64,000 bases of DNA from a virus (IMGVR_UViG_3300031595_000166:64001-128000), one strand, 5' to 3'; numbered from the stretch's first letter, positions 23,028 through 51,514 are shown. Notes: generated by a model from the letters alone, not told the origin. A program made the numbers and translations.

Positions 23028-23234
23028 TCATTTTAGTAATAGAAGTTTTTCAATTCGTTCTTTGTCAAGATAGACAAAACCTTTAAGCGTTAATAGTCTT
23101 CCTTCTCCGGGCTTATATATCTCAACTGTGGTCAATCCATCTATACAATTATCATACCAGATAGTATATGGTGGCAGATCATGCGTGCAATGATGATCGT
23201 GCTTGATTATTTTGTTGCAGATTGGACAGTTCAT
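23028..23234 (-). CDS. CPxC cassette protein, tagged
   Basis: MNCPIC...LDKERIEKLLLLK. Confidence 0.85.
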   Translation of the reverse strand: MNCPICNKIIKHDHHCTHDLPPYTIWYDNCIDGLTTVEIYKPGEGRLLTLKGFVYLDKERIEKLLLLK

Positions 23235-23464
23235 TTTAACAATAGCAGTTTTTCAATTCGTTCTTTGTCAAGGTAAATCAATCCTTTGAATTCGAGAACT
23301 GCTACCCATTGAATTTTAATGTCAAACACGGCAGTACAATTTAAAATATGTGAGTATTGAACAATGTATTCGCCCATATAATGTTCGCATAGTTGACGCA
23401 ATGTTTTGTTGCATATCGGACATGAGGGAATGGGTGCGCTTGAATCGTAGATCTCGTAGATCAT
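23231..23464 (-). CDS. CPxC cassette protein, tagged
   Basis: CPIC...LDKERIEKLLLLK. Confidence 0.85.
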   Translation of the reverse strand: MIYEIYDSSAPIPSCPICNKTLRQLCEHYMGEYIVQYSHILNCTAVFDIKIQWVAVLEFKGLIYLDKERIEKLLLLK

Positions 23465-24237
23465 TTAGCATCGCCACAACAACGACAACCAGTAGTAGTA
23501 TCCGAATAAAATTGCCCATGACCGTATGTCATAGGTTCGCACCTATGCCTGCCCCCACCTGCGTGCCCTCCACTGAGAGTGGACGTCAGATGAAGACCGG
23601 ACGCTGGCGCATAGTATTCAGGAACACGCGTCCACTCATCGACCGACCCGATCATATTATGGATGCCAAACGGTGAAACACACTTAGGGTAGTCAGTAAT
23701 ACTGGAACTATAATCACAATTTTTCTTACCACATTTTTTAAATGGCTTATGTTCGATATCGCAGGCGCCTACATCTCTTGTGAAACCGTATGGGTATGGG
23801 TTATTCGCTTCGCCCTCACACGCAAACATCCATTCTGGATGACTACACAGCCTCATCCCCTGCTCACTACATCTCTTCTCACACTGCCCAAACGTCTGAT
23901 CATTCAGTGGCATCTTCGTCTCAGGGTTATACAACTCCTCAGTCGTAATACAATACTTCATTTTAACCGTCTTGACTAAACACTTAGCAGGTTGCTTATA
24001 TTCCGCACATCGTCTTGCAACCGAAGTAGGAGGATCGATCCAATGCAGACAAACCTCTTCTGGCTTCGGGCAGTAATTACCTTCAACCAATGTGCTTCCA
24101 ACATGACACACCTGCGGTTCCTTCGGCTCTTCTGGAACCACAATAGTAGTAGTCTTACTTGTATCTGCTGGGCTCTGAGCAGAACATAACAGTCCAACAA
24201 CACAAACAATTAGAATGAACGATAGTTTTGTTTTCAC
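23461..24237 (-). CDS. secreted FGE-sulfatase (SUMF1)-like domain protein
   Basis: Signal peptide; RLC..EWMFACEG...YPYG, SPFGIHNMIGSVDEW, GCRCC. Confidence 0.8.
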   Translation of the reverse strand: MKTKLSFILIVCVVGLLCSAQSPADTSKTTTIVVPEEPKEPQVCHVGSTLVEGNYCPKPEEVCLHWIDPPTSVARRCAEYKQPAKCLVKTVKMKYCITTEELYNPETKMPLNDQTFGQCEKRCSEQGMRLCSHPEWMFACEGEANNPYPYGFTRDVGACDIEHKPFKKCGKKNCDYSSSITDYPKCVSPFGIHNMIGSVDEWTRVPEYYAPASGLHLTSTLSGGHAGGGRHRCEPMTYGHGQFYSDTTTGCRCCGDAK

Positions 24238-24248
24238 GGATCGATTCC

Positions 24249-24467
24249 TTATTGCAACATTAGGAGTATTTCAATGCGTTGTTCGTTTTCAATTGGAATA
24301 AGTTTGTTAAGTTTTACTAGAAGCTGATCATCCAAACTAATCCATGTCTGCGGAGGAAGTCCGAATACTGTTCGCATATATTCAATTTTATATTTACCAA
24401 TGATATGGCAATGAAGTGGAAAAAAATCTATAATAACAGAATTGCAATTGGGACAATAATCATTCAT
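24249..24467 (-). CDS. CPxC cassette protein, tagged
   Basis: CPNC...PIENEQRIEILLMLQ. Confidence 0.85.
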   Translation of the reverse strand: MNDYCPNCNSVIIDFFPLHCHIIGKYKIEYMRTVFGLPPQTWISLDDQLLVKLNKLIPIENEQRIEILLMLQ

Positions 24468-24721
24468 TTTAGTAGCAACATTGTTTCAATGCGTTGTTCG
24501 TTTTCAATTGGAACAAGTCTATTGATTACTAGAACCTGAATATCCTTCTTAAGAAGACTAGTCTCATCAGGAACATTATCACCGGCACAAAAATAAAGTA
24601 CTTGATATTCGCCATACATATGGATATGAGATTTGATTTTATTAAGTCGGGCGGCACATACAGGACAACGATCATCCATTGTATGCAATCCATTTATACT
24701 TACCATCCTTGGACTTGGCAA
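24464..24721 (-). CDS. CPxC cassette protein, tagged
   Basis: CPVC...PIENEQRIETMLLLK; probable start MDDRCP. Confidence 0.8.
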   Translation of the reverse strand: MPSPRMVSINGLHTMDDRCPVCAARLNKIKSHIHMYGEYQVLYFCAGDNVPDETSLLKKDIQVLVINRLVPIENEQRIETMLLLK

Positions 24722-24893
24722 GGATCATTGATTGATGGCAATGGGAACATTTAAGAATCATCCCAGCGTGAGCCGATTCACTGCCATGTTCGTCAATAAA
24801 ATCCGAACAACAATTGAACACTCCCTCGCCGAAAACAACTTGAAAATCACTGACCTTACCAATAGTGCGCATAGGATTTTTTCTCCACGGAAC

Positions 24894-24921
24894 AACTTAA
24901 CCACGCCCCCAAGCGTGTCAA
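24894..24921 (-). promoter_or_regulatory. sigma70-type early promoter
   Basis: TTGACA-16-TAAGTT. Confidence 0.65.
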
Positions 24922-24949
24922 GATCCCCAGTGTGGTGAAGTGTAGGATA

Positions 24950-25168
24950 TTATTTCAATAGCGTTGGAACCGCCGAACAATCTGGTTGATTCATTGGCGG
25001 GAAGTTATGTGCAGATATAACACCAAACGATTGTAATATAAATAATAACACAATCACTAATGCTACAACATTTACAATAACTTTTATTTTAGTATCAACT
25101 TTTAGTAAAGAATTAAATAAGAATAAAGAAAAGCCTAAACAGGTTAGTATAACGAGGAATGTAATCAT
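24950..25168 (-). CDS. small two-TM membrane protein (Thivi_2564-like), paralog of 27750..27944
   Basis: D.KIK.I.NVV...LQSFG. Confidence 0.6.
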   Translation of the reverse strand: MITFLVILTCLGFSLFLFNSLLKVDTKIKVIVNVVALVIVLLFILQSFGVISAHNFPPMNQPDCSAVPTLLK

Positions 25169-25227
25169 TTTATTTCTCCAACCTAATACAAAATTGTGTA
25201 TAATAATACTTATTTTGGTATTAGATC

Positions 25228-25485
25228 ATGAACAATTATAACTACAAAACATTATTAGTCTCAGGAAAAGACTCAATCCTAATCGAATTAGACGGGGAAC
25301 CAAGAGAAGTTTCCGTTGAATTCAAAAAACAACATCACCATCATCGCAAACATCATAATGTCCCATGCAATCCACATCAAGATACATTGAAACACGCTAT
25401 CGTATGTGATGATGAACTATTCTTCCTCGGAATTGAATGGTCAGTTGCAGGAATAAGAGAAGTGATCTGGTCAGTTAAATACTAA
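25228..25485 (+). CDS. hypothetical His-rich protein
   Basis: First gene of plus-strand unit. Confidence 0.6.
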   Translation: MNNYNYKTLLVSGKDSILIELDGEPREVSVEFKKQHHHHRKHHNVPCNPHQDTLKHAIVCDDELFFLGIEWSVAGIREVIWSVKY

Positions 25486-25511
25486 ACAACTAAATAGTAA
25501 GAGGTAAGTGT

Positions 25512-26447
25512 ATGAATATATTGGTATTTGGATTCTATTCCCATATGAATGTGGGCGATAATCTTTTTACCGATGTCTTTCATAAACTATTCCCGCAGCA
25601 TTCATTTACATTTACCGATCATATTACAAACAATTTACTCAAAAACATATCCGCAGTATTCATTGGCGGCGGATCAATGTTATGCGACAAACCAAACATT
25701 GAAAACATCAAGAAACTAAAACTACTTCCAATATATTATATAGGAATTGGTTCTGAGACATTGATAAATCCAGTTCATTTAGATCTAATGAAGCAAGCAA
25801 AGCTAATAGCATTGCGTTCAGATCATAAACTATCTATTATTAGATCAATAAACCCTAATACAATAGTTATTCCTGACTTAGTCTATGCCTTGGCAACAGA
25901 TATAGTTCCAGATCCAATAAGTAAAACGGTTCTTGTGCTACCAAACATAGCAGTAGTCCCACAGAATAATGATCATCATTGGAAACATACTGCTTGGGAG
26001 TGGTTCAGGAATGAGTTTTCGCAGTTTTTAGATAGCATTATTGATCATGGATACAAAATATCCTTCCTATCTATGTGTCAAGACCATAAACTACACGATG
26101 ATTTTGCTTCACTTGGTATCATAAGTAGTATGAAGCACAGAGATATAGATTATATTATTGAATCGGATGATATAATAAAAACAATTTCAGAACATAGCAT
26201 TGTTATTACGCAGAGATATCATGGAATAATACTATCAGAGCTTGCAAGAACACCGTATGTTGCAATACATCATCATGATAAATTGAAAGAATCTTATTTT
26301 AATGCTGGGGCATTTGTTTCATACTACGGATTCAGTAAACAAACAATGAATGATAAGTTCAATCTTGCTATGAAGAAAGATTACAGTTATGATGTATCAG
26401 TATTTGAGAATATATTTAGAACATTAGTTAGCAAGGTGGGAATATGA
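25512..26447 (+). CDS. polysaccharide pyruvyl transferase family protein
   Basis: GFYSHMNVGDNL, IGGGS, LRSD, PDLVY, RYHGIILS. Confidence 0.85.
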   Translation: MNILVFGFYSHMNVGDNLFTDVFHKLFPQHSFTFTDHITNNLLKNISAVFIGGGSMLCDKPNIENIKKLKLLPIYYIGIGSETLINPVHLDLMKQAKLIALRSDHKLSIIRSINPNTIVIPDLVYALATDIVPDPISKTVLVLPNIAVVPQNNDHHWKHTAWEWFRNEFSQFLDSIIDHGYKISFLSMCQDHKLHDDFASLGIISSMKHRDIDYIIESDDIIKTISEHSIVITQRYHGIILSELARTPYVAIHHHDKLKESYFNAGAFVSYYGFSKQTMNDKFNLAMKKDYSYDVSVFENIFRTLVSKVGI

Positions 26448-27697: not shown

Positions 27698-27749
27698 GGA
27701 GGATGTAGTAGTCGTATTCGGACGCTGAACTGATTTTAGATGATTAGTT

Positions 27750-27944
27750 TCAGCGAAGTCTTGGGAATGTTGTAGTGCCGAGAAGTCCGAACGCCGATAA
27801 GACATATAATAAAACACAGATAACAACTACTACATTTATGATTGTTTTGATTCTGGCGTCCATTGGGATCATCGTGTTGACGAGCCAAAGTGCGATTCCG
27901 ATCACTATTAAAACAACTATTAATCCAATCATTTTGATGATCAT
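27750..27944 (-). CDS. Thivi_2564-like small membrane protein
   Basis: LWLVNTMIPMDARIKTIINVVVVI..LL..LSAFG. Confidence 0.7.
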   Translation of the reverse strand: MIIKMIGLIVVLIVIGIALWLVNTMIPMDARIKTIINVVVVICVLLYVLSAFGLLGTTTFPRLR

Positions 27945-28047
27945 TTCTTATAGAGAATGGTGTTCCGATATTGGAATGATCATCTCTATCAACACAATAC
28001 TTCAATGTGCATACCCAATCTGACATAAGTATATAAGGAATATCAAC

Positions 28048-31206: not shown

Positions 31207-31413
31207 TTATAGGAGGAGAAGTAGTTTCTCGATTTTTTCTTCGGTTAATGGAATTAGTTGATCATATATTCTTAGTAAGATTTTTGTTATCTCTGGGTTG
31301 CAAACGAAGGTTATGTTTTTCAGGAGGTTGTATACAACCATATATTTGCCATGTGTATGATAGCAACATGCTGAATTTAGTTTTGTTTCGGAATTACAGA
31401 TAGGGCAATTCAT
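31207..31413 (-). CDS. CPxC cassette protein, tagged
   Basis: Start MNCPIC at ATGA overlap; LTEEKIEKLLLLL. Confidence 0.85.
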   Translation of the reverse strand: MNCPICNSETKLNSACCYHTHGKYMVVYNLLKNITFVCNPEITKILLRIYDQLIPLTEEKIEKLLLLL

Positions 31414-31685
31414 TTTAGTAATAGTATTGTGTTGATACGATCCTCGGTTAGCCGAAACCATTTATTACGTAGAGTTATAAGAAGATGAATACTAATTTTG
31501 CCATTTGATATAAATGGATCTTTCACAGAATCATCATACACGGATATTCTATTTGAAACAGAATCGATTCTTTGATAGACAATATGATATTTTCCTATTC
31601 TATGAGAATGCCACCATACTCTTCCTTGTTGGGCAGTTCCAATAATTAATTGATCACATTCAGGACAGGGGATAGGATTATTCAT
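31410..31685 (-). CDS. CPxC cassette protein, tagged
   Basis: CPEC...LTEDRINTILLLK. Confidence 0.85.
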   Translation of the reverse strand: MNNPIPCPECDQLIIGTAQQGRVWWHSHRIGKYHIVYQRIDSVSNRISVYDDSVKDPFISNGKISIHLLITLRNKWFRLTEDRINTILLLK

Positions 31686-31888
31686 TTTAGCAATAGCATA
31701 ATTTCAATTCGATCTTCATCAAGAAAAACATGCCCTTTACAATTTAAAATTGATTCACCCCATGGATTATTCGTATAAACATAAGTTCCATGTAGGAAAA
31801 TATTCTCATCGCGATATGAAACCTCATATTTACCAAGTGTATGCCAATGTGAGGCATAAATTATTTCATTGCAGATGGGGCAGTTCAT
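31682..31888 (-). CDS. CPxC cassette protein, tagged
   Basis: CPIC...LDEDRIEIMLLLK. Confidence 0.85.
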   Translation of the reverse strand: MNCPICNEIIYASHWHTLGKYEVSYRDENIFLHGTYVYTNNPWGESILNCKGHVFLDEDRIEIMLLLK

Positions 31889-32154
31889 TGTAGCAATAAC
31901 AATTTCTCTATTCGTTCTTCATCTAATACAACAAAACCATTCAATGTCATCTTAGTTTCCCAACCATAACTATCATCCTTGCCAGTGTATTTTAATTGTA
32001 TTAAAGTTTTCATTTGATCACCATTGCGCGAATCGAATGCAATATATGCAATATACACCACTCGATACTTACCATATCGATGCAACGTATGACCTTGCCA
32101 GCCGATATAACTTTTACATATGGGACACAGAGGAATTTCTATTATATTATTCAT
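31885..32154 (-). CDS. CPxC cassette protein, tagged
   Basis: CPIC...LDEERIEKLLLLQ. Confidence 0.85.
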   Translation of the reverse strand: MNNIIEIPLCPICKSYIGWQGHTLHRYGKYRVVYIAYIAFDSRNGDQMKTLIQLKYTGKDDSYGWETKMTLNGFVVLDEERIEKLLLLQ

Positions 32155-32354
32155 TGTAATAACAATAGTTTCTCTATTCGTTCCTCATCCAATAATACTA
32201 ATCTATCAATTCTAAGTATCCTTTTATTGTTAGGGTATTTTCCAGCCCAAACTGTTACAACATTATCAGAATAGTAATATACTCTATACTTTCCAATATC
32301 ATGAGGGCACATATATCCAATTGGATTATTGCAGATTGGACATCTAGCATTCAT
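32151..32354 (-). CDS. CPxC cassette protein, tagged
   Basis: CPIC...LDEERIEKLLLLQ. Confidence 0.85.
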   Translation of the reverse strand: MNARCPICNNPIGYMCPHDIGKYRVYYYSDNVVTVWAGKYPNNKRILRIDRLVLLDEERIEKLLLLQ

Positions 32355-32779
32355 TGTAATAACAATAATTTCTCTATTCGTTCTTCATCTAACAATACTA
32401 ATTTATTTAGAGCCAATATTTTATTACGATTTGAATATTCCCCAGTCCAAACAACAGTCTCATCATTATAATAATACACACGATATTTTCCCGCATCATG
32501 CTTGCAATAAGCATCAATACCTATACCGCATATAGGGCAATCAACATGAATATCATTACAGAGTATTTCACAATTCATTTTATTCATTGTAATAAACAAT
32601 AATTTCTCTATTCGTTCTTTATCAAGAAACACAAGCCTATCTTTTATACATAATACATTTAGTTCATAAGTAGTATCTACACATATTGTTATAGGATCAA
32701 TAAGATAATATACAGTATATTTTTCATAAATATGAAAACAACAATCATGTATTTCTTCATTACAGATAGGACAGTTCAT
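32351..32779 (-). CDS. two CPxC cassettes fused by a 1-nt insertion
   Basis: Two CPIC units; junction ERIEKLLFITMN has one extra base compared with neighbouring junctions. Confidence 0.75.
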   Translation of the reverse strand: MNCPICNEEIHDCCFHIYEKYTVYYLIDPITICVDTTYELNVLCIKDRLVFLDKERIEKLLFITMNKMNCEILCNDIHVDCPICGIGIDAYCKHDAGKYRVYYYNDETVVWTGEYSNRNKILALNKLVLLDEERIEKLLLLQ

Positions 32780-33027
32780 TTCACGGGTTCGCAATAGCCT
32801 CCGTCAGAATACATTTCACAATACAATGTAATTGTTTTTCCATTAACATTTACAATGCAATTAGTATCTTCCCCCAATTCAACTGGTAATGTATAGCATT
32901 GCACACTCGAACTTCCGGTCAATGATGCACTGATATATTGCATTGCATATGGTATTGCCCAATCACTTTTACTTGTATTGTTTTCGCAAGGTACAAAAAA
33001 CATTGACAAAAGATATAATAATATCAT
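32776..33027 (-). CDS. small Cys-containing secreted protein
   Basis: Hydrophobic N-terminus; ATGA-coupled. Confidence 0.5.
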   Translation of the reverse strand: MILLYLLSMFFVPCENNTSKSDWAIPYAMQYISASLTGSSSVQCYTLPVELGEDTNCIVNVNGKTITLYCEMYSDGGYCEPVK

Positions 33028-33231
33028 GGTTCATCCGAATATAAAATATCTTGATATTGTTCTTGTTGTATTCGTATATTACTATAATGCATTGCACAAG
33101 AAACCAATGCCGGTATAGTAATGAATGCTACTATGATTGTTAGCAACAATGTTATATGACCGTTTATGTTTTGCCTTTGTGTGTTAGTTCCCATACCTGC
33201 TCATATATCAGGCATGTTGTATTAGTGAAAA

Positions 33232-33465
33232 TTATTTTAGGAGCAGGATTGTGTTGATTCGTTTCTCATCCAATAAGACATGCCTATCAAAATCCAATAC
33301 TCTACGCCATACCGTATCAGATTTATCATATACTACTGTAATCTTAGATAGATATCTTATGACATATATCCCAGAAACCTCATCATGAATAAACTGATGT
33401 TCATCCAAGCATATGGGGCAAGTGAATATATACAGGTCAAGTTCATCGCCTTTGCGTTCTATCAT
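33232..33465 (-). CDS. CPxC cassette protein, tagged
   Basis: CPIC...LDEKRINTILLLK. Confidence 0.85.
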   Translation of the reverse strand: MIERKGDELDLYIFTCPICLDEHQFIHDEVSGIYVIRYLSKITVVYDKSDTVWRRVLDFDRHVLLDEKRINTILLLK

Positions 33466-33686
33466 TTCAATACCAATAGTTTCTCAATTCGTTCAATATC
33501 AATCCACCCATCAACACTTAGTATCTCTTCGCCAGTATTATGCTTGTCATTAGAAGAATAAACTACGGTTCTATTTTCCTGAAAATAATCATAATATACA
33601 ATATACTTGCCAAAATAATGACAGCAATATGTAGGATCTTTCATCATCTTATTGCATACAGGGCATCGCAATTCTAATGTTTTCAT
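33462..33686 (-). CDS. CPxC cassette protein, tagged
   Basis: CPVC...IERIEKLLVLK. Confidence 0.85.
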   Translation of the reverse strand: MKTLELRCPVCNKMMKDPTYCCHYFGKYIVYYDYFQENRTVVYSSNDKHNTGEEILSVDGWIDIERIEKLLVLK

Positions 33687-33904
33687 TGTAGTAATAGGAG
33701 TTTTTCAATACGCTCCTTCGTATCCAGTAAGATTAACTTTTTCAATCGCAAAATTATGATATAATCATCAGCATGATCGCGGGCGAAAACGAATGTTTCT
33801 ACTGGCTCATCGAAGTAGCGAACAAGATATTTATCTACTTTGTGTTGACAACAATCATTCTTATCAAGAACCCGAATACGTTCATTGCATTTCGGGCAGT
33901 TCAT
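33683..33904 (-). CDS. CPxC cassette protein, tagged
   Basis: CPKC...KERIEKLLLLQ. Confidence 0.85.
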   Translation of the reverse strand: MNCPKCNERIRVLDKNDCCQHKVDKYLVRYFDEPVETFVFARDHADDYIIILRLKKLILLDTKERIEKLLLLQ

Positions 33905-34110
33905 TGTAGTAATAGGAGTTTCTCAATACGCTCTTCATCAAGAAAGATTCGTTTTTTAAAACGAAGGATATAATCTCCCGATGTACCAACATATACAATT
34001 GTTTTGTATGTAGTCAGTTCATAACATACGACTTCGTATTTGCCTGCTGCATGGACATGAAAAATACGTAAGTTTTTATTGCATACTGGGCAAGTAGAAC
34101 TGTTGTTCAT
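33901..34110 (-). CDS. CPxC cassette protein, tagged
   Basis: CPVC...LDEERIEKLLLLQ. Confidence 0.85.
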   Translation of the reverse strand: MNNSSTCPVCNKNLRIFHVHAAGKYEVVCYELTTYKTIVYVGTSGDYILRFKKRIFLDEERIEKLLLLQ

Positions 34111-34316
34111 TTTAATAAAAATAATTGTTCAATGCGTTCTAATGTCAATGGGATTATATTTTTTAGTCTCAATAACAACAGATCTCCTTTGCTATGAAAA
34201 CTAAAAAACCAAACCATAGTGTTATTGCCCGTAGTGTCATACTCAACATCGTATTTATCTATTGCATGCCAGTGGTGCTTACTTTCTAAGACATCAGAAC
34301 AGATAGGGCAGATCAT
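34107..34316 (-). CDS. CPxC cassette protein, tagged
   Basis: CPIC...LTLERIEQLFLLK. Confidence 0.85.
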   Translation of the reverse strand: MICPICSDVLESKHHWHAIDKYDVEYDTTGNNTMVWFFSFHSKGDLLLLRLKNIIPLTLERIEQLFLLK

Positions 34317-34317
34317 T

Positions 34318-34527
34318 TTATTTCAGTAGGAGGAGTTTCTCAATACGTTCTATTGTCAATACGGCTAACTGACCAAACAATCGCAACAATAGATTTTGTA
34401 TATCAAGATCCCAGACATAAGTATTTGTTCTATTATAGTTAATATAGTTAATATAATACTTTCCGATCCTATGCCAGCACATAGGATTCAACTTTTCGTG
34501 GCAGACTGGGCAAGTGTGTTCTAACAT
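34318..34527 (-). CDS. CPxC cassette protein, tagged
   Basis: CPVC...LTIERIEKLLLLK. Confidence 0.85.
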   Translation of the reverse strand: MLEHTCPVCHEKLNPMCWHRIGKYYINYINYNRTNTYVWDLDIQNLLLRLFGQLAVLTIERIEKLLLLK

Positions 34528-34534
34528 TTTCTTT

Positions 34535-34753
34535 TTATTTCAATAATAGTAATTGTTCTATACGATCGAATGTTAGATGAACAAGACCGGCAAAACGCAA
34601 CACATAACTATTACCATCCCATACATTGGTATTATACCGCTCATGCATAACATATTCTACCCCATACGATTTCACATCATTATTAACGATATGACTGTGT
34701 GGATCGTGGTGGAGATTGTTTCCTAGATCATTGGAACAGATTGGGCAGAGCAT
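34535..34753 (-). CDS. CPxC cassette protein, tagged
   Basis: CPIC...LTFDRIEQLLLLK. Confidence 0.85.
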   Translation of the reverse strand: MLCPICSNDLGNNLHHDPHSHIVNNDVKSYGVEYVMHERYNTNVWDGNSYVLRFAGLVHLTFDRIEQLLLLK

Positions 34754-34762
34754 TTTTTGCCT

Positions 34763-35023
34763 TTATTTGAGTAGTGAGAGTTTCTCAATTCGTTCTTCAT
34801 CTAACACAACGAAGCCATCAAGCCTGAATAATTCTTTCCAATAAGAAGTAGTAGTATATTTGAGCCCAAGACTCATTCCTTCAATGTATGAAGTATCATC
34901 AGAAAGCTTAATGTAAATTAGTGTTTTGCGTTCCTTCGCCACGTAGACGATTTCATATTTTCCAAGAACATGTTCGTGCGAAAGATCTCCACTAAAATCA
35001 ACATTACAGATAGGGCAGATCAT
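34763..35023 (-). CDS. CPxC cassette protein, tagged
   Basis: CPIC...LDEERIEKLSLLK. Confidence 0.85.
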   Translation of the reverse strand: MICPICNVDFSGDLSHEHVLGKYEIVYVAKERKTLIYIKLSDDTSYIEGMSLGLKYTTTSYWKELFRLDGFVVLDEERIEKLSLLK

Positions 35024-35024
35024 T

Positions 35025-35285
35025 TTATTTCAGTAGTGAGAGTTTCTCAATTCGTTCATCATCCAATACAATCAGACCATCCATAACTAATACTAGATTT
35101 GTTATAGGTGGTACTATATCTTGTCCGGTAAAAACCACAGTTTTGTCCATTTCATCCTCAACAAGATATCTAATCTGATGACGAACGAGAATATGACGAT
35201 GATATACATGGAATACTATATGACACATTGGGCATTCACGCGTGTTATCCATTGTAGTTACCTCAACAATAATAGTTTTTGCCAT
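35025..35285 (-). CDS. CPxC cassette protein, tagged
   Basis: CPMC...LDDERIEKLSLLK. Confidence 0.85.
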   Translation of the reverse strand: MAKTIIVEVTTMDNTRECPMCHIVFHVYHRHILVRHQIRYLVEDEMDKTVVFTGQDIVPPITNLVLVMDGLIVLDDERIEKLSLLK

Positions 35286-35494
35286 CGATCATAAACATTC
35301 GGTCGTTTGTTTTTTAGATATGATATAAGTGTCCTATCAGATTCAAAAAAATAGTCAAGAAACGAATCATGTAATAGGATCTCTATTAGATCTTCGTCTG
35401 ATCTTAATGCAAACTCTATTCTGAATATTGTGGGCGTCAAGGCTCCCACACCAAGCACAAGCAAACCAAGGAGGGCGTATCCAATGTTTTTCAT
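35258..35494 (-). CDS. small helical protein with tag (paralog of 49242..49415)
   Basis: SDEDLIE.LL...YLK..RP.VYDRWQKLLLLR. Confidence 0.7.
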   Translation of the reverse strand: MKNIGYALLGLLVLGVGALTPTIFRIEFALRSDEDLIEILLHDSFLDYFFESDRTLISYLKNKRPNVYDRWQKLLLLR

Positions 35495-36674: not shown

Positions 36675-36938
36675 TTATTGAAGGAGGAGTAGTTTCTCAA
36701 TTCGTTGTTCATCTAATACTACCCAGTCATTCAAGTCTATGACACGAACATATCGACTGTCATGAAATAATGTCTGAAAATCAGGATTATCAATCCATAC
36801 GCTAATGGCTGATAGACCTTCTACTGTATGATAGACTGCTATATATTTACCGAATTTATGATCGTGGCTGGAATAACTATCACGGGATGACAAGAAACAC
36901 TTATGGCATATGGGGCATTGTTGTTCTGTCATAGACAT
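36675..36938 (-). CDS. CPxC cassette protein, tagged
   Basis: CPIC...LDEQRIEKLLLLQ. Confidence 0.85.
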   Translation of the reverse strand: MSMTEQQCPICHKCFLSSRDSYSSHDHKFGKYIAVYHTVEGLSAISVWIDNPDFQTLFHDSRYVRVIDLNDWVVLDEQRIEKLLLLQ

Positions 36939-45116: not shown

Positions 45117-45329
45117 TTACTTCAATAGCATCAACATATCTATATACTCTTCATCCAATCGTTTTGGACTATTCAATGTAATCCTACTATTCTTATCCGA
45201 GTAATTTGCTTGTATATAGATACGAACCTCAGTATCCCAATATACGAACACAAGATACTTACCAACAGTATGACTGCATGAAGCATAATCATATAGACAG
45301 TAATCACAAACTGGACAAGTATAGCTCAT
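45117..45329 (-). CDS. CPxC cassette protein, tagged (EYIDM subtype)
   Basis: CPVC...PKRLDEEYIDMLMLLK. Confidence 0.85.
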   Translation of the reverse strand: MSYTCPVCDYCLYDYASCSHTVGKYLVFVYWDTEVRIYIQANYSDKNSRITLNSPKRLDEEYIDMLMLLK

Positions 45330-45556
45330 TTCAATAACAATAACCCTTCAATACGCTCCTCATTCAGCAACGTTAATTTTTTAATACTCAGTAGTAATGG
45401 TGAGAGACGTTCTCTTGGATATATGTCAATCAATTCATTGGGAGAATCTACACCATAATAACCCACGCCATAATACACATCGTATTTACCATATCTATGA
45501 AAACAACACGATGACGATGACAGATACATATGACAATCTGGGCAAGTATAATTCAT
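45326..45556 (-). CDS. CPxC cassette protein, tagged
   Basis: CPDC...LNEERIEGLLLLK. Confidence 0.85.
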   Translation of the reverse strand: MNYTCPDCHMYLSSSSCCFHRYGKYDVYYGVGYYGVDSPNELIDIYPRERLSPLLLSIKKLTLLNEERIEGLLLLK

Positions 45557-45918
45557 TTCAATAACAATACCATATCAATATACTCTTCACTCAATCTCTT
45601 TGGAGACTTCAATGTTAGTAAAAAACCATTCGTGTCTCCGGCTTTATTAGCTCTATACACATTAACATAACCACCAATAAGAACAAACACAACATACTTA
45701 TTGAGGGTGTGTCTACATCTAACATTTGTCATATCTCTTGAATCAAAAAACTAACTAATCTTGAATAGGATCTTGCTCCAATTATTGATATAACATTTGA
45801 CTGACATATCACTGTATATAAGAACACCATATTTACCTATGCTATGATGACAATATAATACGCTTGGATCAGTATAAGATTCCTTATACATAATGAGATT
45901 ACAGTTAGGACATTTCAT
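45553..45918 (-). pseudogene. two partial CPxC cassettes joined across an in-frame TAG
   Basis: MKCPNC...ILFKIS-TAG(45751-45753)-FFDSRD...PKRLSEEYIDMVLLLK. Confidence 0.65.
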
Positions 45919-46157
45919 TTCAATAACAGCATCATATCAATATACTCTTCATCCAAGCGCTTTGGAGATTTCAATCTCAAAATACGACTGGACCTTATTG
46001 TTATTGGGTATAAATATACTCCAACTGCACCGTCGGAAAATGTTATGATATAGTATTTACCAATATCATGTTCACACAGAACATCACACAGAACATCAAA
46101 CTGGTCTTCATCAAAAAAACTTGTATTCTTATCACAGACCGGACAGGTATAACTCAT
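45915..46157 (-). CDS. CPxC cassette protein, tagged (EYIDM subtype)
   Basis: CPVC...PKRLDEEYIDMMLLLK. Confidence 0.85.
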   Translation of the reverse strand: MSYTCPVCDKNTSFFDEDQFDVLCDVLCEHDIGKYYIITFSDGAVGVYLYPITIRSSRILRLKSPKRLDEEYIDMMLLLK

Positions 46158-46369
46158 TTTAGCAACAGCATCTTATCGATATAATCTTCACTCAATGTCT
46201 TTGGACTATTGAGTGTTAGTATTCGCATTGGGGATGGATCGGTAGTTTTATTATTCCAAACATTCACACTTCCGGTATCATAAATATGGACTGAGTATCT
46301 ACCAATCAGATGATGATGGTATCTTGGCAAGGGCGAGCTATTATTACAGACGGGGCAGATATAACTCAT
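46154..46369 (-). CDS. CPxC cassette protein, tagged (EYIDM subtype)
   Basis: CPVC...LSEDYIDKMLLLK. Confidence 0.85.
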   Translation of the reverse strand: MSYICPVCNNSSPLPRYHHHLIGRYSVHIYDTGSVNVWNNKTTDPSPMRILTLNSPKTLSEDYIDKMLLLK

Positions 46370-46560
46370 TTTAGCAACAGCATCATATCAATATACTTTT
46401 CACTCAATCTTTTTGGAAAAGACAGGTTCAACAAGCATCTTTCTCCATCGTAGATGTAAGCCTCGCCATCAAAATGAATATAAGCAGTATATAAACCAAC
46501 GGTATGTTCATGCAGTAGCATCGTTATAATATAATTACAGACGGGACAAGTATAATTCAT
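46366..46560 (-). CDS. CPxC cassette protein, tagged (EYIDM subtype)
   Basis: CPVC...LSEKYIDMMLLLK. Confidence 0.85.
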   Translation of the reverse strand: MNYTCPVCNYIITMLLHEHTVGLYTAYIHFDGEAYIYDGERCLLNLSFPKRLSEKYIDMMLLLK

Positions 46561-46763
46561 TTTAGTAGCAATATCATATCAATATATGTTTCATCTAAAC
46601 GTTTTGGACGTTCTAGTCTAACAACAAACTTCCCAGTATACCAGATAGAAATCAGACCGTCGTTATACACATAAGCAGTATATTTACCCAGCCTATGCGT
46701 ACATGTCTTTTCAATGTATTTTGATTGAAAATCTTCATTGCAGACGGGACAGATATAATTCAT
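46557..46763 (-). CDS. CPxC cassette protein, tagged (EYIDM subtype)
   Basis: CPVC...LDETYIDMILLLK. Confidence 0.85.
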   Translation of the reverse strand: MNYICPVCNEDFQSKYIEKTCTHRLGKYTAYVYNDGLISIWYTGKFVVRLERPKRLDETYIDMILLLK

Positions 46764-46796
46764 TTCAATACCAATAATAATCCAGCATAATCATAT

Positions 46797-47972
46797 ATGC
46801 ATTACGGTGATTTATACATTCAAGCAAAACTCTTTTACAAGATGGCAGAGGAAACTCTCGACATTCTTCCGGGGAACTTGTATAAATTCGTTATGTACAA
46901 AACACAAGGGAAAATTACACCGGAAGTAGCAGATAATTTCGTCGTTGCAAACAAGACAACATTGTCTAAACTTAAGTTCGTTGATTGGAGTGGTAATTTC
47001 GAAAAGAATGGTAGTAAATTATTTGGTGAAGATGGAGATGGAGAACGATATATGATCTCAACTGAATCTACACCGCCGAAGAACTCACATGTCAAACAAT
47101 CATATATACTGCAAGGGAAACATCCAATACCAACACTTTATGTATTCAGATATGAGCGTGGTAGCGATGTAGAGTTTCCAAAAGAACTCGGACATTACTT
47201 GTTTCTAATGCCAGCGTTATGCGATATGTTCGATGTTGCGTATCCATATTACTTTCAAGATCCAGATCATATGAATGACTTTGTCAAGTTCGTTCAAGAA
47301 AATAAGGCTAAGATTGATTCCATTCGATCTCGATTCCAACACGAGCCAAAACCATTAGGAAGCGGATCAGATGGCTTTGTTTTTGCGATTGGCAAGGATA
47401 GGATATTGAAGATATTCAAACAGCAATTCTCATATCAAGCGGCAAAAGAATCTGCAAACCGAATATGGAAACAACACGGCATAGCAGGAACCGAAGCATA
47501 CATTGATGACATTGGTCAGATTGGAAACTTCGGAGAACACCCGGTATATTATTATATACAAGAACGAATGGAAACCGTGTTCAATTTCTTGAAGAATGAT
47601 GTTGACTTCAATGGAAATAGAAGAGACAGAAAAATGTCTCAAATAACAGACTTCATGAAAGATATAGCAAAAACTATTAAGAACGATCCAAACTATCCTG
47701 CTATATACAGGAACAAAAACAATCCAAGAATTGGTAATGCGATCAGGTCATTAGCGGAGAGAGTGTATAATCGAATTGTCTATTTTGTAAACGAAGAGAT
47801 TACTGATGATTTCGCTGGTAAATTACAACCTGATTGGATGCTAAAACTAATTGAAGAGATGGCTGGAAAACTAATCACGGACAGAATGGATTTGCGATCA
47901 TATAATGTTGGGATTACAGGGAACGGTTATTTGAGATTCTTTGATCCTGCATTTGATCCAAAAGAATTATAG
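46797..47972 (+). CDS. atypical protein-kinase-like protein, paralog of 12355..13566
   Basis: LGSGSDG, RILKIF, TEAYIDD, YY.QERM, DLRSYNVG, FFDPAF. Confidence 0.75.
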   Translation: MHYGDLYIQAKLFYKMAEETLDILPGNLYKFVMYKTQGKITPEVADNFVVANKTTLSKLKFVDWSGNFEKNGSKLFGEDGDGERYMISTESTPPKNSHVKQSYILQGKHPIPTLYVFRYERGSDVEFPKELGHYLFLMPALCDMFDVAYPYYFQDPDHMNDFVKFVQENKAKIDSIRSRFQHEPKPLGSGSDGFVFAIGKDRILKIFKQQFSYQAAKESANRIWKQHGIAGTEAYIDDIGQIGNFGEHPVYYYIQERMETVFNFLKNDVDFNGNRRDRKMSQITDFMKDIAKTIKNDPNYPAIYRNKNNPRIGNAIRSLAERVYNRIVYFVNEEITDDFAGKLQPDWMLKLIEEMAGKLITDRMDLRSYNVGITGNGYLRFFDPAFDPKEL

Positions 47973-48191
47973 TAGCAACAGCATCTTTTCAATATACTCT
48001 ATGTTCAGTTTATCGTATGATAATACTTCAAAAATGAACTGATGACCATAATACACGCGCGACACACCATCATCATAAACAACAACAACATATGGACTAA
48101 TGTTATGCTGGTTCGTACAAAACTTTCTATCTGGACGCTGATTTGATATAATCATATCGTCTGCATTACAGACCGGACATCTTTTACTCAT
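47967..48191 (-). CDS. CPxC cassette protein, tagged
   Basis: CPVC...LNIEYIEKMLLLL. Confidence 0.85.
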   Translation of the reverse strand: MSKRCPVCNADDMIISNQRPDRKFCTNQHNISPYVVVVYDDGVSRVYYGHQFIFEVLSYDKLNIEYIEKMLLLL

Positions 48192-48460
48192 ATCAATAAC
48201 ATCAACTTATCTAAACGATCTTTGCCAATTCTATTTTCAAGATAGGTAATCAGTTGATCTCTGAACACACCTGCTTTGGTATCTCCAATGAACTCAATGA
48301 TCTCTATTGTGTCTCTACCGTCAAGAATGATTTTATTACTGCGATCAAACTCTTTTTTTGTTAGAGGTTCCCATTCATTGAATCCAATACCGGGCTTCAA
48401 CTTACTACATGCAAGGCTAATATCTAAATGCAGTTCGCCCTTTTTGTTATACCTAAACAT
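48188..48460 (-). CDS. hypothetical protein with C-terminal tag
   Basis: Ends GKDRLDKLMLLI. Confidence 0.7.
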   Translation of the reverse strand: MFRYNKKGELHLDISLACSKLKPGIGFNEWEPLTKKEFDRSNKIILDGRDTIEIIEFIGDTKAGVFRDQLITYLENRIGKDRLDKLMLLI

Positions 48461-48499
48461 CTTTGTCTTTGAGTTTCTTTTCTGTATTTATTATTGAAA

Positions 48500-48775
48500 C
48501 TATTTGCTTCTAACAGTGCACCCTTTGAAAGACATCAGACCACCACAACACACAAGCATATTAACTTTGCGACCTGCTGGATTAGTTGCATTGGCGTGAT
48601 ACCAGTTTTGATCTTTTTGATCGCAACCCATAAACTGTGCTCCAAAAAAACCACGATTTGTAATCGTGATGTCATTGAAACCATTATCCGACAATGCCTT
48701 TACGGCTTCGTCATCATTCGTGGCACAAGCAACGATTGTAATAGACATGATTGCGAACATGAATAGATTTTTCAT
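48500..48775 (-). CDS. phage lipoprotein
   Basis: Start MKNLFMF after GGAGGAG; IVAC lipobox; ATNPAG..V..LVCCG...KGCTVR. Confidence 0.7.
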   Translation of the reverse strand: MKNLFMFAIMSITIVACATNDDEAVKALSDNGFNDITITNRGFFGAQFMGCDQKDQNWYHANATNPAGRKVNMLVCCGGLMSFKGCTVRSK

Positions 48776-48779
48776 TTGA

Positions 48780-49160
48780 CTAAACTCCTCCGCACAGATC
48801 AGTGAAGTCTGCGTTCGTCTTAAACCCAACGCTAACCAAGTCATCAAGAACTTCCTTTGCAGTGGCAGGTGAAGTATCTTGTTCGCACATCCAAACGCCT
48901 TCCATCTCATCATTCTCAGCAACATACTCGGGAAGAATGTCAGCGAGATCCATGTGCTGATCAAACATATATCCTTCCCTGTCGAAGTAAGCACACGGCG
49001 TGAGATACACCATCTTATTTTCATCAACAGCGACATAAAAATCAGACGGCAACGATTGACTGCACAACTTATCAAAAGTCTCGCGGTCGTCATCAAGATC
49101 AAGAATCTCTTCAATGTTTCCCCAAGACACATCAACATCGCTTGCTAGTAGATTAGTCAT
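48780..49160 (-). CDS. hypothetical protein, paralog of 2780..3154
   Basis: Start MTNLLAS downstream of promoter. Confidence 0.65.
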   Translation of the reverse strand: MTNLLASDVDVSWGNIEEILDLDDDRETFDKLCSQSLPSDFYVAVDENKMVYLTPCAYFDREGYMFDQHMDLADILPEYVAENDEMEGVWMCEQDTSPATAKEVLDDLVSVGFKTNADFTDLCGGV

Positions 49161-49199
49161 TGTTATATCCATTCTTTCTGCCTGCTTTGAGGCGCCAGT

Positions 49200-49228
49200 A
49201 ATATAACCACGAACGCACAAGCCGTCAA
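49200..49228 (-). promoter_or_regulatory. sigma70-type promoter
   Basis: TTGACG-17-TATATT. Confidence 0.75.
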
Positions 49229-49241
49229 CTGCGATAGTATC

Positions 49242-49415
49242 CTACATCAGCAACAATATATTTTCCCACCGTCTATATACTTGTGGCTTATATTTTTTGA
49301 GGTATCTAATGTTTTCGCTACGAGCATCGTACGAGATATAATAATGCTTAGCCCTCAATAAATGTTCAATTATTTCTTCGTCGCTTGCAGTTTCAATCCA
49401 AGATTTTGTTCCCAT
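49242..49415 (-). CDS. 57-aa helical protein with tag (not in ORF track)
   Basis: MGTKSWIETASDEEIIEHLL...YLKKYKPQVYRRWENILLLM. Confidence 0.7.
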   Translation of the reverse strand: MGTKSWIETASDEEIIEHLLRAKHYYISYDARSENIRYLKKYKPQVYRRWENILLLM

Positions 49416-49418
49416 ATA

Positions 49419-49655
49419 TTATCTCAATAGTAAGAATTTTTCAATTCGTTCTTCATCAAGAAAGACCAACTTACTAAATTGAAGCAGAACAATACTTTGT
49501 TCTACAACTAGTAGTACTCTTGTCATATATTCACCGGACATACTTACATTATCGTATAATACTTTATATTTTCCTACTAAATGATCGCAATATGGAACAC
49601 CATTGCCAGACGCAGACATATTGTAATCACAGATTGGGCAATGTAATGTCTTCAT
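49419..49655 (-). CDS. CPxC cassette protein, tagged
   Basis: CPIC...LDEERIEKFLLLR. Confidence 0.85.
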   Translation of the reverse strand: MKTLHCPICDYNMSASGNGVPYCDHLVGKYKVLYDNVSMSGEYMTRVLLVVEQSIVLLQFSKLVFLDEERIEKFLLLR

Positions 49656-49867
49656 TTTAGTAGTAGTAATTTCTCTATGCGCTCTTCATCCAAGAGACAC
49701 TGTTTTTCAAGATACAATACAAAAATGTTTTCGCACCAAACATTTATCCATTCAACACAATAATAGACAGTATATTTGCTATACATATGACGGCAAAAAT
49801 ACTTTGTACTACTCCAATACAATTCTTTATTACAGTGGGGGCAATTCATTTTAGTAGTAGGATACAC
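49652..49867 (-). CDS. CPxC cassette protein, tagged
   Basis: CPHC...LDEERIEKLLLLK. Confidence 0.85.
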   Translation of the reverse strand: MYPTTKMNCPHCNKELYWSSTKYFCRHMYSKYTVYYCVEWINVWCENIFVLYLEKQCLLDEERIEKLLLLK

Positions 49868-49896
49868 AGGTATTGACTTCGGGACAGTTGAACATA

Positions 49897-50847
49897 TTAA
49901 TATTTACTGCCAGTAAACGGCTTCACCAAACCGGACGCAACATCAGATTGAAACTTCTGCCAGTAGTTTTTGGAAGTCTTCTCATAGAGTTTTAGAACTT
50001 CGGGAATATGTTCATAGCAATATTTTCTGAACCAGCCGGACGTGATACTAGAACATACCTTAGAATATGCGAAGCGGAAACTTTTGTCTGGCGACCATAC
50101 ACCGGGATTGCTAATTTGTGAGCGTTCTAATGCCAGCGTAAGCCCTTCTTCTAAGGCACCAGCAAGTCTAATGTCTTCGGACACTGCGAAGAACTTCTCT
50201 TTACTGCATTTAACTTGCTCTCCATCAGAAAGGTAATTTTCGTATGCCGGACGGGAACCCAGCATTACAGAACGATGCAGATCATCATGATCAAAAATAT
50301 ACCGAACTGAATCGTCCTTGAAAAAATAATCCTTACTAACATTCAATTTAGGATGCTTTTGTGTTGCATAACTTTCTTGTTCGCGCAACTTATGAAACTC
50401 AACAAGCTCTGGACGGATCGTTGCACCCATATGCTTCATTAGATACCAGTCGCTTGCGTGCTTCCAAAATGTTGCGTCCGAAGTGTTTCCAAACTTCTTA
50501 TACTTGTGAGCGTCCTTCGTCGTCCACAATAAATCGATCGATGGAACCATCCCAAAACTCGTCTCCATATAATCTCCGTCTTCCTTCACCAAGTCAATCA
50601 ACAATTCATCGCTACTACCCGGCACCGCAATATCAAACTCCACCATCGTATCTCCCTCTACGATGACCTTGCGTCCATTATTCTCTTCATATACTCGGCG
50701 CCCTCCAACACGATCATAGTTAGATGCAATCCAAGCATTGGCTTCGTCTCTTGATGAAACAACGAAGTCAAAATCAAGTGGCGCTCGTTTCATTGCTGAA
50801 CCAAGTCTGAGCTTCATAGCACGCGAACCAATCAAGACTAAACTCAT
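49897..50847 (-). CDS. phage nucleotidyltransferase-like protein
   Basis: Pol-beta-like LIGSRA...DFD motif; C-terminal DHDDLH, EE..LALER, ITSGWFR. Confidence 0.6.
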   Translation of the reverse strand: MSLVLIGSRAMKLRLGSAMKRAPLDFDFVVSSRDEANAWIASNYDRVGGRRVYEENNGRKVIVEGDTMVEFDIAVPGSSDELLIDLVKEDGDYMETSFGMVPSIDLLWTTKDAHKYKKFGNTSDATFWKHASDWYLMKHMGATIRPELVEFHKLREQESYATQKHPKLNVSKDYFFKDDSVRYIFDHDDLHRSVMLGSRPAYENYLSDGEQVKCSKEKFFAVSEDIRLAGALEEGLTLALERSQISNPGVWSPDKSFRFAYSKVCSSITSGWFRKYCYEHIPEVLKLYEKTSKNYWQKFQSDVASGLVKPFTGSKY

Positions 50848-50856
50848 TTGATTATC

Positions 50857-51102
50857 CTATATGAGGAGTAAGAGTTTTTCAATTCGTTCTTCGTCAATAA
50901 AAACTAAGTCATTCATTATAGTAATTAGTCTCAATAATCTTCTGTGTTTTTTATTAGAAGTAAATTCATACAATCTCGTTGTTGTTGAGCCGTCATCGTT
51001 CAGATCATAAACTGCTCTATATTTAGAACCAATATAGTGGGCGCACCAATCACGATTGCGATCATCTTTTCTCATCACGAAACCACATACAGGACAATTC
51101 AT
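50857..51102 (-). CDS. CPxC cassette protein, tagged
   Basis: CPVC...IDEERIEKLLLLI. Confidence 0.85.
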   Translation of the reverse strand: MNCPVCGFVMRKDDRNRDWCAHYIGSKYRAVYDLNDDGSTTTRLYEFTSNKKHRRLLRLITIMNDLVFIDEERIEKLLLLI

Positions 51103-51299
51103 GTTAGCAACAACAGTTTTTCAATTCGTTCTTCATCAACCAGAATCGACCTTGGGAAAAACCCTTTGAACTGAAAACCTTTTGATGGTAGCAATTCGAA
51201 TATAGTCGTACCACCACCAGAATACATAACAAGGTATTTACCAACAAAATGCTCGCAGTAATCGTTGTGCATATATAATTTACAGATAGAGCAATTCAT
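51099..51299 (-). CDS. CPxC cassette protein, tagged
   Basis: CSIC...VDEERIEKLLLLT. Confidence 0.85.
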   Translation of the reverse strand: MNCSICKLYMHNDYCEHFVGKYLVMYSGGGTTIFELLPSKGFQFKGFFPRSILVDEERIEKLLLLT

Positions 51300-51514
51300 G
51301 TTAGCAACAATAGTTTTTCAATTCGTTCCCAACTAATCAACCCACTCATTTTTAGTAGTGGGCGCACATGCTGTATATCAGTTGAAAACACCTCCGTCGA
51401 ACAAGAACCATCCGCTCTGTAATCGTAGCATACTTTTATGGATCGATGGTTGTCTGCCCAATGATCGCAATAATTAGGAGCGCGTATTTCACGATCACAG
51501 ATAGGACAATTCAT
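51296..51514 (-). CDS. CPxC cassette protein, tagged
   Basis: CPIC...WERIEKLLLLT. Confidence 0.85.
   Translation of the reverse strand: MNCPICDREIRAPNYCDHWADNHRSIKVCYDYRADGSCSTEVFSTDIQHVRPLLKMSGLISWERIEKLLLLT

Follow-up and report, generated by a model that had tools for sequence, protein, structure and literature searches.

We analyzed a stretch of 64,000 nucleotides (the window; IMGVR_UViG_3300031595_000166, bases 64001-128000) that belongs to a 157,262-bp contig with 38% G+C, a genome fragment of an uncultured huge phage. Between positions 23028 and 51514 of the window there are 35 small genes, called units here, whose products combine a putative zinc site (CPxC followed by [C/H]xH), a GKY motif, a hypervariable core and a leucine-rich C-terminal tail (the tag). 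Judged by their sequence, the units are real protein-coding genes of one family, and the family was previously undescribed, being new with respect to Pfam, PHROGs, the Protein Data Bank (PDB) and the phages in GenBank. A preliminary description of the locus had proposed rapid diversification in an arms race. The simple picture of a fast arms race by point mutation has to be corrected, the diversity is old and is re-dealt by gain, loss and swap of whole units.

The ORF (open reading frame) listing and a pattern scan placed all 35 units on the minus strand in eight blocks that contain, in order, 2, 2, 16, 1, 8, 1, 2 and 3 units. Every block of the preliminary description, which had counted about 35 units, was recovered at its coordinates. 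Our count takes the 147-aa (amino acid) ORF at 32351-32794 as two units, and the block at 31207-35285 has exactly 16. The blocks are interspersed with unrelated genes and the 35 units are not a single array. Lengths are between 55 and 91 aa, with two partial units, against the 64 to 90 aa stated before. Two units are fused through a 1-nt insertion and two more are truncated; 33 of the 35 are intact. Across this 28-kb stretch the family takes about a quarter of the coding capacity, and at least four further units are found downstream on the contig, at window-equivalent positions 73084, 75089, 75295 and 76188. A family profile built from 31 units matched 36 ORFs of the window at E <=1e-7 and 38 of the contig at E <=2.3e-6. 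The E-values of the units span 1e-7 to 1e-26, and the best unrelated ORF had E = 0.4. The units are given below, with the evidence in brackets. L004 is the locus Ga0265336_10001535 (10,377 bp), which came from a metagenome scan and is the only relative locus compared.

23028-23234, minus: unit, 68 aa, LDKERIEKLLLLK tail (profile E = 2.4e-24)
23231-23464, minus: unit, 77 aa, with ATGA overlaps on both sides, to the FGE-sulfatase-like gene upstream and the next unit downstream (E = 1.2e-23)
24249-24467, minus: unit, 72 aa, PIENEQRIE tail variant (E = 1.1e-18)
24464-24721, minus: unit, listed with a TTG start and 85 aa but likely to begin at a later ATG, with the PIENEQRIE variant of the tail (E = 9.4e-20)
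31207-31413, minus: unit, 68 aa when started at the ATG in overlap with the stop of its upstream neighbour; a longer ORF extends to 31461 (profile and ORF listing)
31410-31685, minus: unit, 91 aa, long beta3-beta4 loop (E = 3.1e-19)
31682-31888, minus: unit, 68 aa (E = 3.4e-25)
31885-32154, minus: unit, 89 aa (E = 6.7e-21)
32151-32354, minus: unit, 67 aa, modelled with a zinc knuckle, four strands and a C-terminal helix, pLDDT 94.9 (profile and AlphaFold2)
32351-32587, minus: unit, downstream half of the 147-aa fused ORF (profile, two domains)
32588-32794, minus: unit, the half of the fused ORF that lies upstream, with one T too many in its tail (…TTGTTTATTACAATGA) (sequence at the junction)
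33232-33465, minus: unit, 77 aa, RINTILLLK tail (E = 1.6e-18)
33462-33686, minus: unit, 74 aa (E = 4.2e-23)
33683-33904, minus: unit, 73 aa (E = 4.2e-22)
33901-34110, minus: unit, 69 aa, 1-residue variant (P0005) in other assemblies (profile match)
34107-34316, minus: unit, 69 aa (E = 4.4e-22)
34318-34527, minus: unit, 69 aa (E = 3.7e-23)
34535-34753, minus: unit, 72 aa (E = 8.5e-19)
34763-35023, minus: unit, 86 aa, insertion of about 20 residues in the beta3-beta4 loop (profile match)
35025-35285, minus: unit, 86 aa as listed, start probably Met12 (profile match)
36675-36938, minus: solitary unit, 87 aa (E = 1.6e-22)
45117-45329, minus: unit, 70 aa, PKRLDEEYID tail, absent from L004 (profile match)
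45326-45556, minus: unit, 76 aa, L004 ortholog 87% identical (profile match)
45553-45732, minus: head-less unit, 59 aa, without CPxC; the homologous L004 unit (3188-3424) is intact (profile match)
45751-45918, minus: tail-less unit, 55 aa, absent from L004 (profile match)
45915-46157, minus: unit, 80 aa, absent from L004 (profile match)
46154-46369, minus: unit, 71 aa, L004 ortholog 93% identical (profile match)
46366-46560, minus: unit, 64 aa, L004 ortholog 98% identical (profile match)
46557-46763, minus: unit, 68 aa, L004 ortholog identical, modelled with pLDDT 88 (profile and AlphaFold2)
46764-46800, minus: relic tail of a tagged gene (…AGLLLVLK, stop, in an ATGA overlap) with stop codons upstream, preceding unit 46557
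47967-48191, minus: solitary unit, 74 aa, its slot holds a different unit in L004 (L004 comparison)
49419-49655, minus: unit, 78 aa, L004 ortholog with a 10-residue internal duplication (profile match)
49652-49867, minus: unit, 71 aa if it starts at GTG, though the ATG at 49849 (65 aa) is the probable start; a relic tail (…ILLLK, stop) lies before it
50857-51102, minus: unit, 81 aa, L004 ortholog 99% identical (profile match)
51099-51299, minus: unit, 66 aa, CSIC here and CPIC in L004 (profile match)
51296-51514, minus: unit, 72 aa, absent from L004 through a 309-bp indel (L004 comparison)

The extra T in unit 32588 removes the stop codon and joins the unit in frame to the next one, which is either a real fusion or a homopolymer sequencing error. 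The tails described as block-specific (PIENEQRIE, PKRL[DS]ExYID and LDEERIEK) are present as claimed. Two small genes outside the family split the 16-unit block (32776-33194). One, ATGA-coupled to the next zinc unit, codes for a protein of 83 aa whose N-terminus is hydrophobic and which contains several Cys; the other codes for a 56-aa protein with one predicted membrane helix. Upstream of unit 35025, the gene at 35258-35494 is unrelated to the units, yet it ends in the same tag (WQKLLLLR).

Most units are coupled head to tail by ATGA, as had been described. There are 19 listed junctions of this kind, and 20 of about 26 within-block junctions when the start of unit 31207 is set at the internal ATG. 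The coupling also ties units to unrelated upstream genes (the FGE-like gene and the ORFs 32776-33027 and 48188-48460), so that it is a habit of the whole genome rather than of the zinc family. In 35 of 37 units the codon before the stop has A as its third base, which fits the overlap, where this A doubles as the first base of the next ATG. It also explains why the tag ends one residue before the stop codon. Promoter-like sites in a sigma-70 scan were at chance level (39 found and 38.1 expected). At two junctions (35022-35050 and 34315-34343, minus strand) the units are 1 nt apart instead of overlapping. At both, the tail and stop read TTGAGA-17 nt-TAAAAT, a 10/12 match to a sigma-70-like promoter that consists of coding sequence.

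We aligned 190 distinct members of the family from the contig, L004 and database representatives. C5 and C8 were found in all 189 aligned sequences and H18 in 190 of 190. Position 16 is C in 136 and H in 47 (183 of 190), and the four presumed metal ligands are complete in 182 of the 190 distinct members. P6 (94%), Y23, the Y of GKY (95%), I60 (96%) and L66 (98%) are also nearly invariant, and the spacer between the ligand pairs varies from 4 to 21 residues. The CPxC, (C/H)xH and GKY pattern read from the window thus holds across the 190 members, and it suggests that the units bind zinc. An AlphaFold2 model of unit 32151-32354, with 33 paralogs as the alignment, reached pLDDT 94.9 and pTM 0.80. 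At the CPxC knuckle it forms a short beta bridge, and strands at residues 15-20, 23-28, 33-37 and 44-49 and a helix at 57-66 complete it. The model of unit 46557-46763, made from an independent 14-sequence alignment of the PKRL/YID subfamily, gave the same order of elements (pLDDT 88.0). Since two models from separate alignments agree, the units share one fold, and the possibility raised before that they might lack a common one did not arise. The modelled architecture joins the zinc ligands CPxC and [C/H]xH to a beta-meander of four strands and ends in a helix. Burial of that helix and the geometry of the ligands are probable, to judge from secondary structure and confidence values. With cysteine-based zinc sites and no signal peptides, the proteins are probably cytoplasmic.

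This arrangement differs from the known small zinc domains. The units are like zinc ribbon or knuckle proteins such as Elf1 (6ir9_M) in the CPxC knuckle, the ligands on beta strands and the small size. Unlike them, their second pair, [C/H]-x-H, lies within strand 1 and there is no second CxxC knuckle, only the first one (CPxC, 94-100%). Nor do they conform to C2H2 fingers, since the spacer is 4-21 residues and the last two ligands are one residue apart, in a beta strand and not in a helix. One could think that the units are nucleic-acid-binding zinc ribbons, small regulators or RNA or DNA binders each with a sequence of its own. The CPxC knuckle is indeed common to many nucleic-acid-binding fingers, and the weak top rows of the searches were C2H2 designs (about 19 residues covered, E = 0.0015, with the family profile against PDB sequences) and Elf1 (VIA-align Z 4.2, within noise). 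But all these resemblances are non-significant, a conserved basic patch is absent, and of 39 units 12 are acidic and 13 basic, with isoelectric points anywhere between 4.7 and 9.7. We also know of no precedent for forty co-transcribed regulators, and we consider this explanation distinctly unlikely.

The other searches for known relatives gave the same answer. Pfam and PHROGs with single units, and Pfam with 33 aligned units, returned only sub-threshold zinc-knuckle noise, with a best Pfam E of 0.03-0.2 and no zinc-ribbon model at its cut-off. The family profile had no significant match among PDB sequences. Foldseek against PDB and BFVD gave no match at E <=0.001, the best Z of VIA-align against 48,161 chains was 4.7, within the stated noise range of the tool, and a fold search of the ESM Atlas found no match. 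The structural check proposed in the preliminary description thus ended in a common modelled fold that matched no known one. No GenBank phage was matched by blastn or tblastn, and protein-based and DNA-pattern scans of IMG/VR and a pattern scan of GTDB gave chance matches only. Nothing relevant was found in the literature on phage zinc-finger paralog arrays. A profile search of 1.84 billion representative proteins did detect 277 clusters (50% identity) at E <=0.001, 115 of them at <=1e-10. One high-ranking match, P0003 (1157 aa), was discarded as a false positive from Ig-like repeats. Among the 156 best-listed representatives without P0003, CPxC was present in 145 and the hydrophobic tail in 147, and 119 were <70% identical to any unit of the contig or L004. 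The sources of these representatives are metagenome assemblies (JGI, ENA and Logan). About 20 other contigs encode family proteins, the longest of 160,591 bp. A profile without the tail recovered tagged members only, although with a search tool of limited sensitivity.

Variation is not spread evenly over the domain. Along strands 2 to 4, positions of low entropy (0.4-2.3 bits) alternate with near-maximal ones (3.6-4.0 bits). Indels are found only in three loops, namely the one between the ligand pairs, the turn that joins beta2 to beta3 and the loop from beta3 to beta4. Variability thus affects these loops and one face of the sheet, while the opposite face is constant, and in the models the constant face would pack against the helix. 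In the variable core Tyr is enriched 2.3-fold and Ala, Glu, Gln and Met are depleted. The ligand pattern, the entropy profile and the models together bear out the idea of a zinc-type scaffold with a hypervariable surface.

How old this variation is can be read from the synonymous positions. Between paralogs, the proportions of synonymous differences (pS) for head, core and tail were 0.77, 0.73 and 0.78, and those of non-synonymous differences 0.47, 0.57 and 0.27. Even the closest pair (32151 and 32351) had a core pS of 0.74. An estimate of dN/dS (the ratio of non-synonymous to synonymous rates) between paralogs was abandoned, because synonymous sites are saturated. The maximum-likelihood tree was star-like, and its tips had a median length of 0.74 substitutions per site. 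With such values of pS and tip length the duplications must be old, and the diversification cannot be called rapid, as it had been. Units of one block do tend to lie together on the tree, which has 22 label changes where shuffled labels gave 31.6 on average and in none of 200 shuffles as few as 22. This agrees with the local amplification proposed before and fits local duplication long ago. The tail has not been kept by gene conversion or recent copying, since its pS is saturated and its leucines use all six Leu codons, with the same codon in only 45% of same-residue pairs.

The junctions are not, as a general rule, the near-identical stretches of 35-40 bp that, it had been suggested, could drive changes in copy number. 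Nucleotide identity over aligned codons was 0.69 in the five head codons, 0.62 in the tail and 0.39 in the core. The last 36 nt had a mean pairwise identity of 66%. The longest in-register exact run between two tails had a median of 7 nt and a maximum of 26 nt, and reached >=20 nt in 7 of 528 pairs. A repeat search found junction families 60-89% identical to the reference copy, and Tandem Repeats Finder saw no array with the period of a unit.

The comparison with L004 gives the dynamics. L004 is collinear with positions 44.7-52.0 kb of the window, in segments with identities of 85.7, 98.0, 93.9, 90.0 and 98.3%. It carries 16 units, nine orthologs (68-100% amino-acid identity) and seven unique ones with no counterpart >49% identical anywhere in the contig. 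The window units 45117, 45751, 45915, 47967 and 51296 are in turn missing from L004. The prediction that copy content differs between related phages was correct: seven units are unique to L004 and five to the window, and one of these is swapped. Identical order and purifying selection throughout the arrays were not both seen, the content differs. The clearest case is the slot of unit 47967, occupied in L004 by unit 5440 between flanks that are 97-98% identical. Identity is lost right at codon 2 and returns only for the last six codons, the stretch between them contains indels, and the L004 occupant has at best 37% identity to any unit of the contig. This is a cassette swap between the start codon and the tail. 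Unit 51296 is removed in L004 by a 309-bp indel. Six extra L004 units sit between the DUF7275 gene and the ortholog of 49652, and both units that flank this stretch begin with the same CTAAAATGATTTAC junction, at the place where the window has the relic tail …ILLLK. The tail-less 45751 and the head-less 45553 match one intact L004 unit, and the pair appears to have arisen by a deletion that spanned one junction. In all, the two loci differ by gene-sized insertions, deletions and replacements with boundaries mostly at conserved gene ends. Five of the eight ends of identity segments fall within 35 nt of a unit start or stop, with about one expected at random by a rough estimate, although conserved heads and tails can themselves draw alignment ends there.

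The sharp boundaries at 47967, with near-identical flanks, are also what a mechanism of targeted hypermutation would leave, and variable cores might be made by something like a diversity-generating retroelement. We give this next to no chance and regard such an element as largely refuted: the 157-kb contig has no match to a reverse transcriptase (RVT_1), the differences in the swapped cassette include indels and all base classes and not adenines only, and the other orthologs are 87-100% identical.

The nine ortholog pairs, pooled over 614 codons, had dS 0.085, dN 0.035 and dN/dS 0.41, by the Nei-Gojobori method, which is coarse with such small counts. Five neighbouring genes outside the family had values of 0.11-0.57. 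The orthologs are within this range, so that retained units are constrained like ordinary genes. This makes it very improbable that the units are functionless, filler genes multiplied by a selfish expansion and left to drift and decay. Copies that are truncated, fused or reduced to relics do exist and content differs between relatives, but synonymous divergence is saturated and 33 of the 35 units are intact all the same, and ligands and tail are nearly invariant across 190 members.

Some other differences between both loci were noted. The L004 ortholog of 49419-49655 (L004:6864-7130) has a 10-residue tandem duplication (KYKVLYDNV repeated) in strand 2, a small in-frame slip within the unit. 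The DUF7275/DUF7277 protein (window 49897-50847, L004:8626-9558) is only 62% identical with dS about 1, between neighbours that are 93-98% identical. Blastn could align no more of the gene than its 5' part (window 50315-50847), at 90%, and the gene is a mosaic with an internal crossover. L004 also has, at 1493-2677 on the minus strand, a 394-aa TnpB or IS605 OrfB-type gene with a Cas12f1-like TNB domain (E = 1.7e-21). About 2.8 kb around it have no match in the 157-kb contig, and the tRNA-Asn/Cys pair of the window adjoins the corresponding point.

The closest parallels to this system should be taken as analogies of design and dynamics and not as memberships. Modular shuffling is known from the hyperplastic regions of T4-type phages (Arbiol et al., 2010, PMC2839356; Comeau et al., 2014, PMC4122927). 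There too, blocks of small accessory genes without known function differ by insertion, deletion or replacement between phages that are near-identical elsewhere, and the exchange points are at short conserved sequences where genes meet. However, the T4-type boundaries are non-coding promoter and stem-loop elements and the shuffled genes are mutually unrelated, whereas the zinc units overlap by ATGA without intergenic space and their boundaries are the coding heads and tails, about 62-69% identical in DNA. Neither do they resemble PeSL intergenic cassettes, as most units overlap and promoter-like sites are not in excess. The multigene families of African swine fever virus (ASFV; MGF 110, 360 and 505) are also tandem diverged paralogs, located in variable regions of the genome, with gain or loss of copies between isolates. 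They differ from the zinc units in being unrelated proteins from another domain of hosts, and are not known to share a tag with other families.

The constant C-terminal end had been considered a property of the zinc family. It extends beyond it. A pattern for the tag matched the C-terminus of 59 contig ORFs, where its internal frequency would predict 2.1. Thirty-eight are zinc units and the other 21 fall outside the family profile, mainly a KPECKV…NGTKRWYLNGKLHRE family and several singletons. Some of these 21 are short ORFs and possibly due to chance, and at least one (73386-73655) has a weak match to the zinc profile. The KPECKV…NGTKRWYLNGKLHRE genes are a second expanded family of about 10 copies, with the look of MORN-like repeats and a weak DUF6745 match. 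They are located at window positions 54057-54751, 58643-59005 and 62755-63051 and at contig positions 58712-60236, 62266-62676 and 136374-136718, and all copies end in …NLQKFLLLI, the same tag as the zinc units.

A tag shared with proteins outside the family profile may serve as a docking element, and two other explanations have to be weighed here. The helix could be an address label, a sorting signal for packaging into the capsid and ejection with the DNA or for delivery to a compartment made by the phage. The zinc units would then be one class of cargo and their variability would reflect roles after delivery. The tag on about 21 contig proteins outside the profile and the selection on the tail at the protein level speak for it, and there is a precedent in the internal proteins of T4, variable small proteins of a polymorphic locus that share a short constant peptide that targets them to the capsid, and at least one of which is an anti-restriction factor. 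But the T4 signal is N-terminal and cleaved, and those proteins are encoded by few genes, with no 40-member family and no known zinc site. Besides, no structural, protease or compartment genes to link the label to were found in the 157-kb fragment, and the helix is packed on the domain in the models rather than free. We consider the address label unlikely. Alternatively, the leucine-rich tail might oligomerise the tagged proteins into mixed bundles or a lattice decorated by the zinc domains. Four consecutive leucines would span more than one face of the helix, and ATGA coupling would give roughly equal co-expression of neighbours, but in the monomer models, which are confident, the helix packs on the sheet, and assembly seems to us improbable.

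The recognizable genes are typical of the accessory and replication regions of large phages. They include a nicotinamide phosphoribosyltransferase, an RnlA-type RNA ligase and an HNH endonuclease, and there are also an NAD-dependent DNA ligase, helicases, three tRNAs, glycosyltransferases, a pyruvyl transferase, the FGE-sulfatase-like protein, the DUF7275 protein, a malate synthase, a trypsin-like peptidase and an OmpA-like protein. The peptidase (window 53310-54035, 241 aa, Trypsin_2, E = 1.6e-18) has no PDZ domain and lies near tagged genes. No capsid or terminase gene was found among the ORFs tested. The CheckV completeness estimate in the IMG/VR virus record is 32%, which if it holds would mean a whole genome of roughly 0.5 Mb. 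The DNA ligase has at best <=32% identity to any GenBank phage protein, indicating that a close cultured relative is absent.

The reading that we prefer, and to which we give about an even chance of being right, is that the units form a birth-and-death library of cytoplasmic binders that share one docking helix. The zinc site (Cys-Pro-x-Cys, Cys/His-x-His) would clamp the four-stranded antiparallel sheet, and the amphipathic C-terminal helix (…E-R-I-E-K-L-L-L-L-x) would cover its conserved face. The opposite face and the three loops, rich in tyrosine and different in almost every copy, have the design of a binder scaffold. The repertoire has grown by old local duplications and now changes by birth and death, in which units are gained, lost, truncated, fused and swapped, with the retained copies under purifying selection. 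Each unit may bind a different target in the infected cell, most plausibly host defence or housekeeping proteins, and the shared helix may connect all tagged proteins to one partner, be it a docking hub, a protease or a compartment.

Several observations weigh against this library of binders. No partner, target or phenotype supports it, and the searches yielded no related protein with a function. The nine ortholog pairs have no detectable excess of non-synonymous change over the five neighbours; "arms-race repertoire" may describe the set but goes beyond these data. The turnover comes from one relative locus only. Genes for ClpP, AAA+ or PDZ proteins, the candidate readers of the tail, were not found in the 157 kb, about 32% of the genome by estimate. 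Finally, the tail helix is confidently packed in the models, and part of its conservation may therefore be purely structural.

A stronger version would be a combinatorial adaptor library, in which each unit catches a host protein and the helix hands it over to a common effector, such as a protease, an unfoldase or a compartment made by the phage. We rate it as doubtful. Its model would be the ankyrin/F-box (PRANC) substrate adaptors of poxviruses (PMC4353913; PMC9414399), also a viral multigene family that joins a variable binding module to a constant C-terminal docking element, with sets of copies that differ between related viruses. The zinc family does have this combination of variable module and constant C-terminal element in many paralogs per genome. 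However, there is no relation of sequence or fold, Pfam searches found no PRANC or F-box match to the units, and the constant part of the zinc units is a helix of about 12 residues and not an F-box-like domain. The SCF ubiquitin system is, to our knowledge, absent from bacteria. The likeness would thus be an analogy of design only.

In the genomes of huge phages hundreds of genes cannot be read, and the zinc family is a case whose engineering logic is clear. Should its units prove to be binders, nature would have supplied a library of affinity domains that are small and stable, and they would give a direct handle on the host targets of such phages. An adaptor library, if true, would be the bacterial-virus counterpart of the poxviral ANK/F-box substrate adaptors and its tag the first linear "address" motif of such kind in a phage. 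And if the tail is a docking or address signal, the way in which large phages manage the sorting or disposal of many proteins together would become testable with a peptide of 12 residues.

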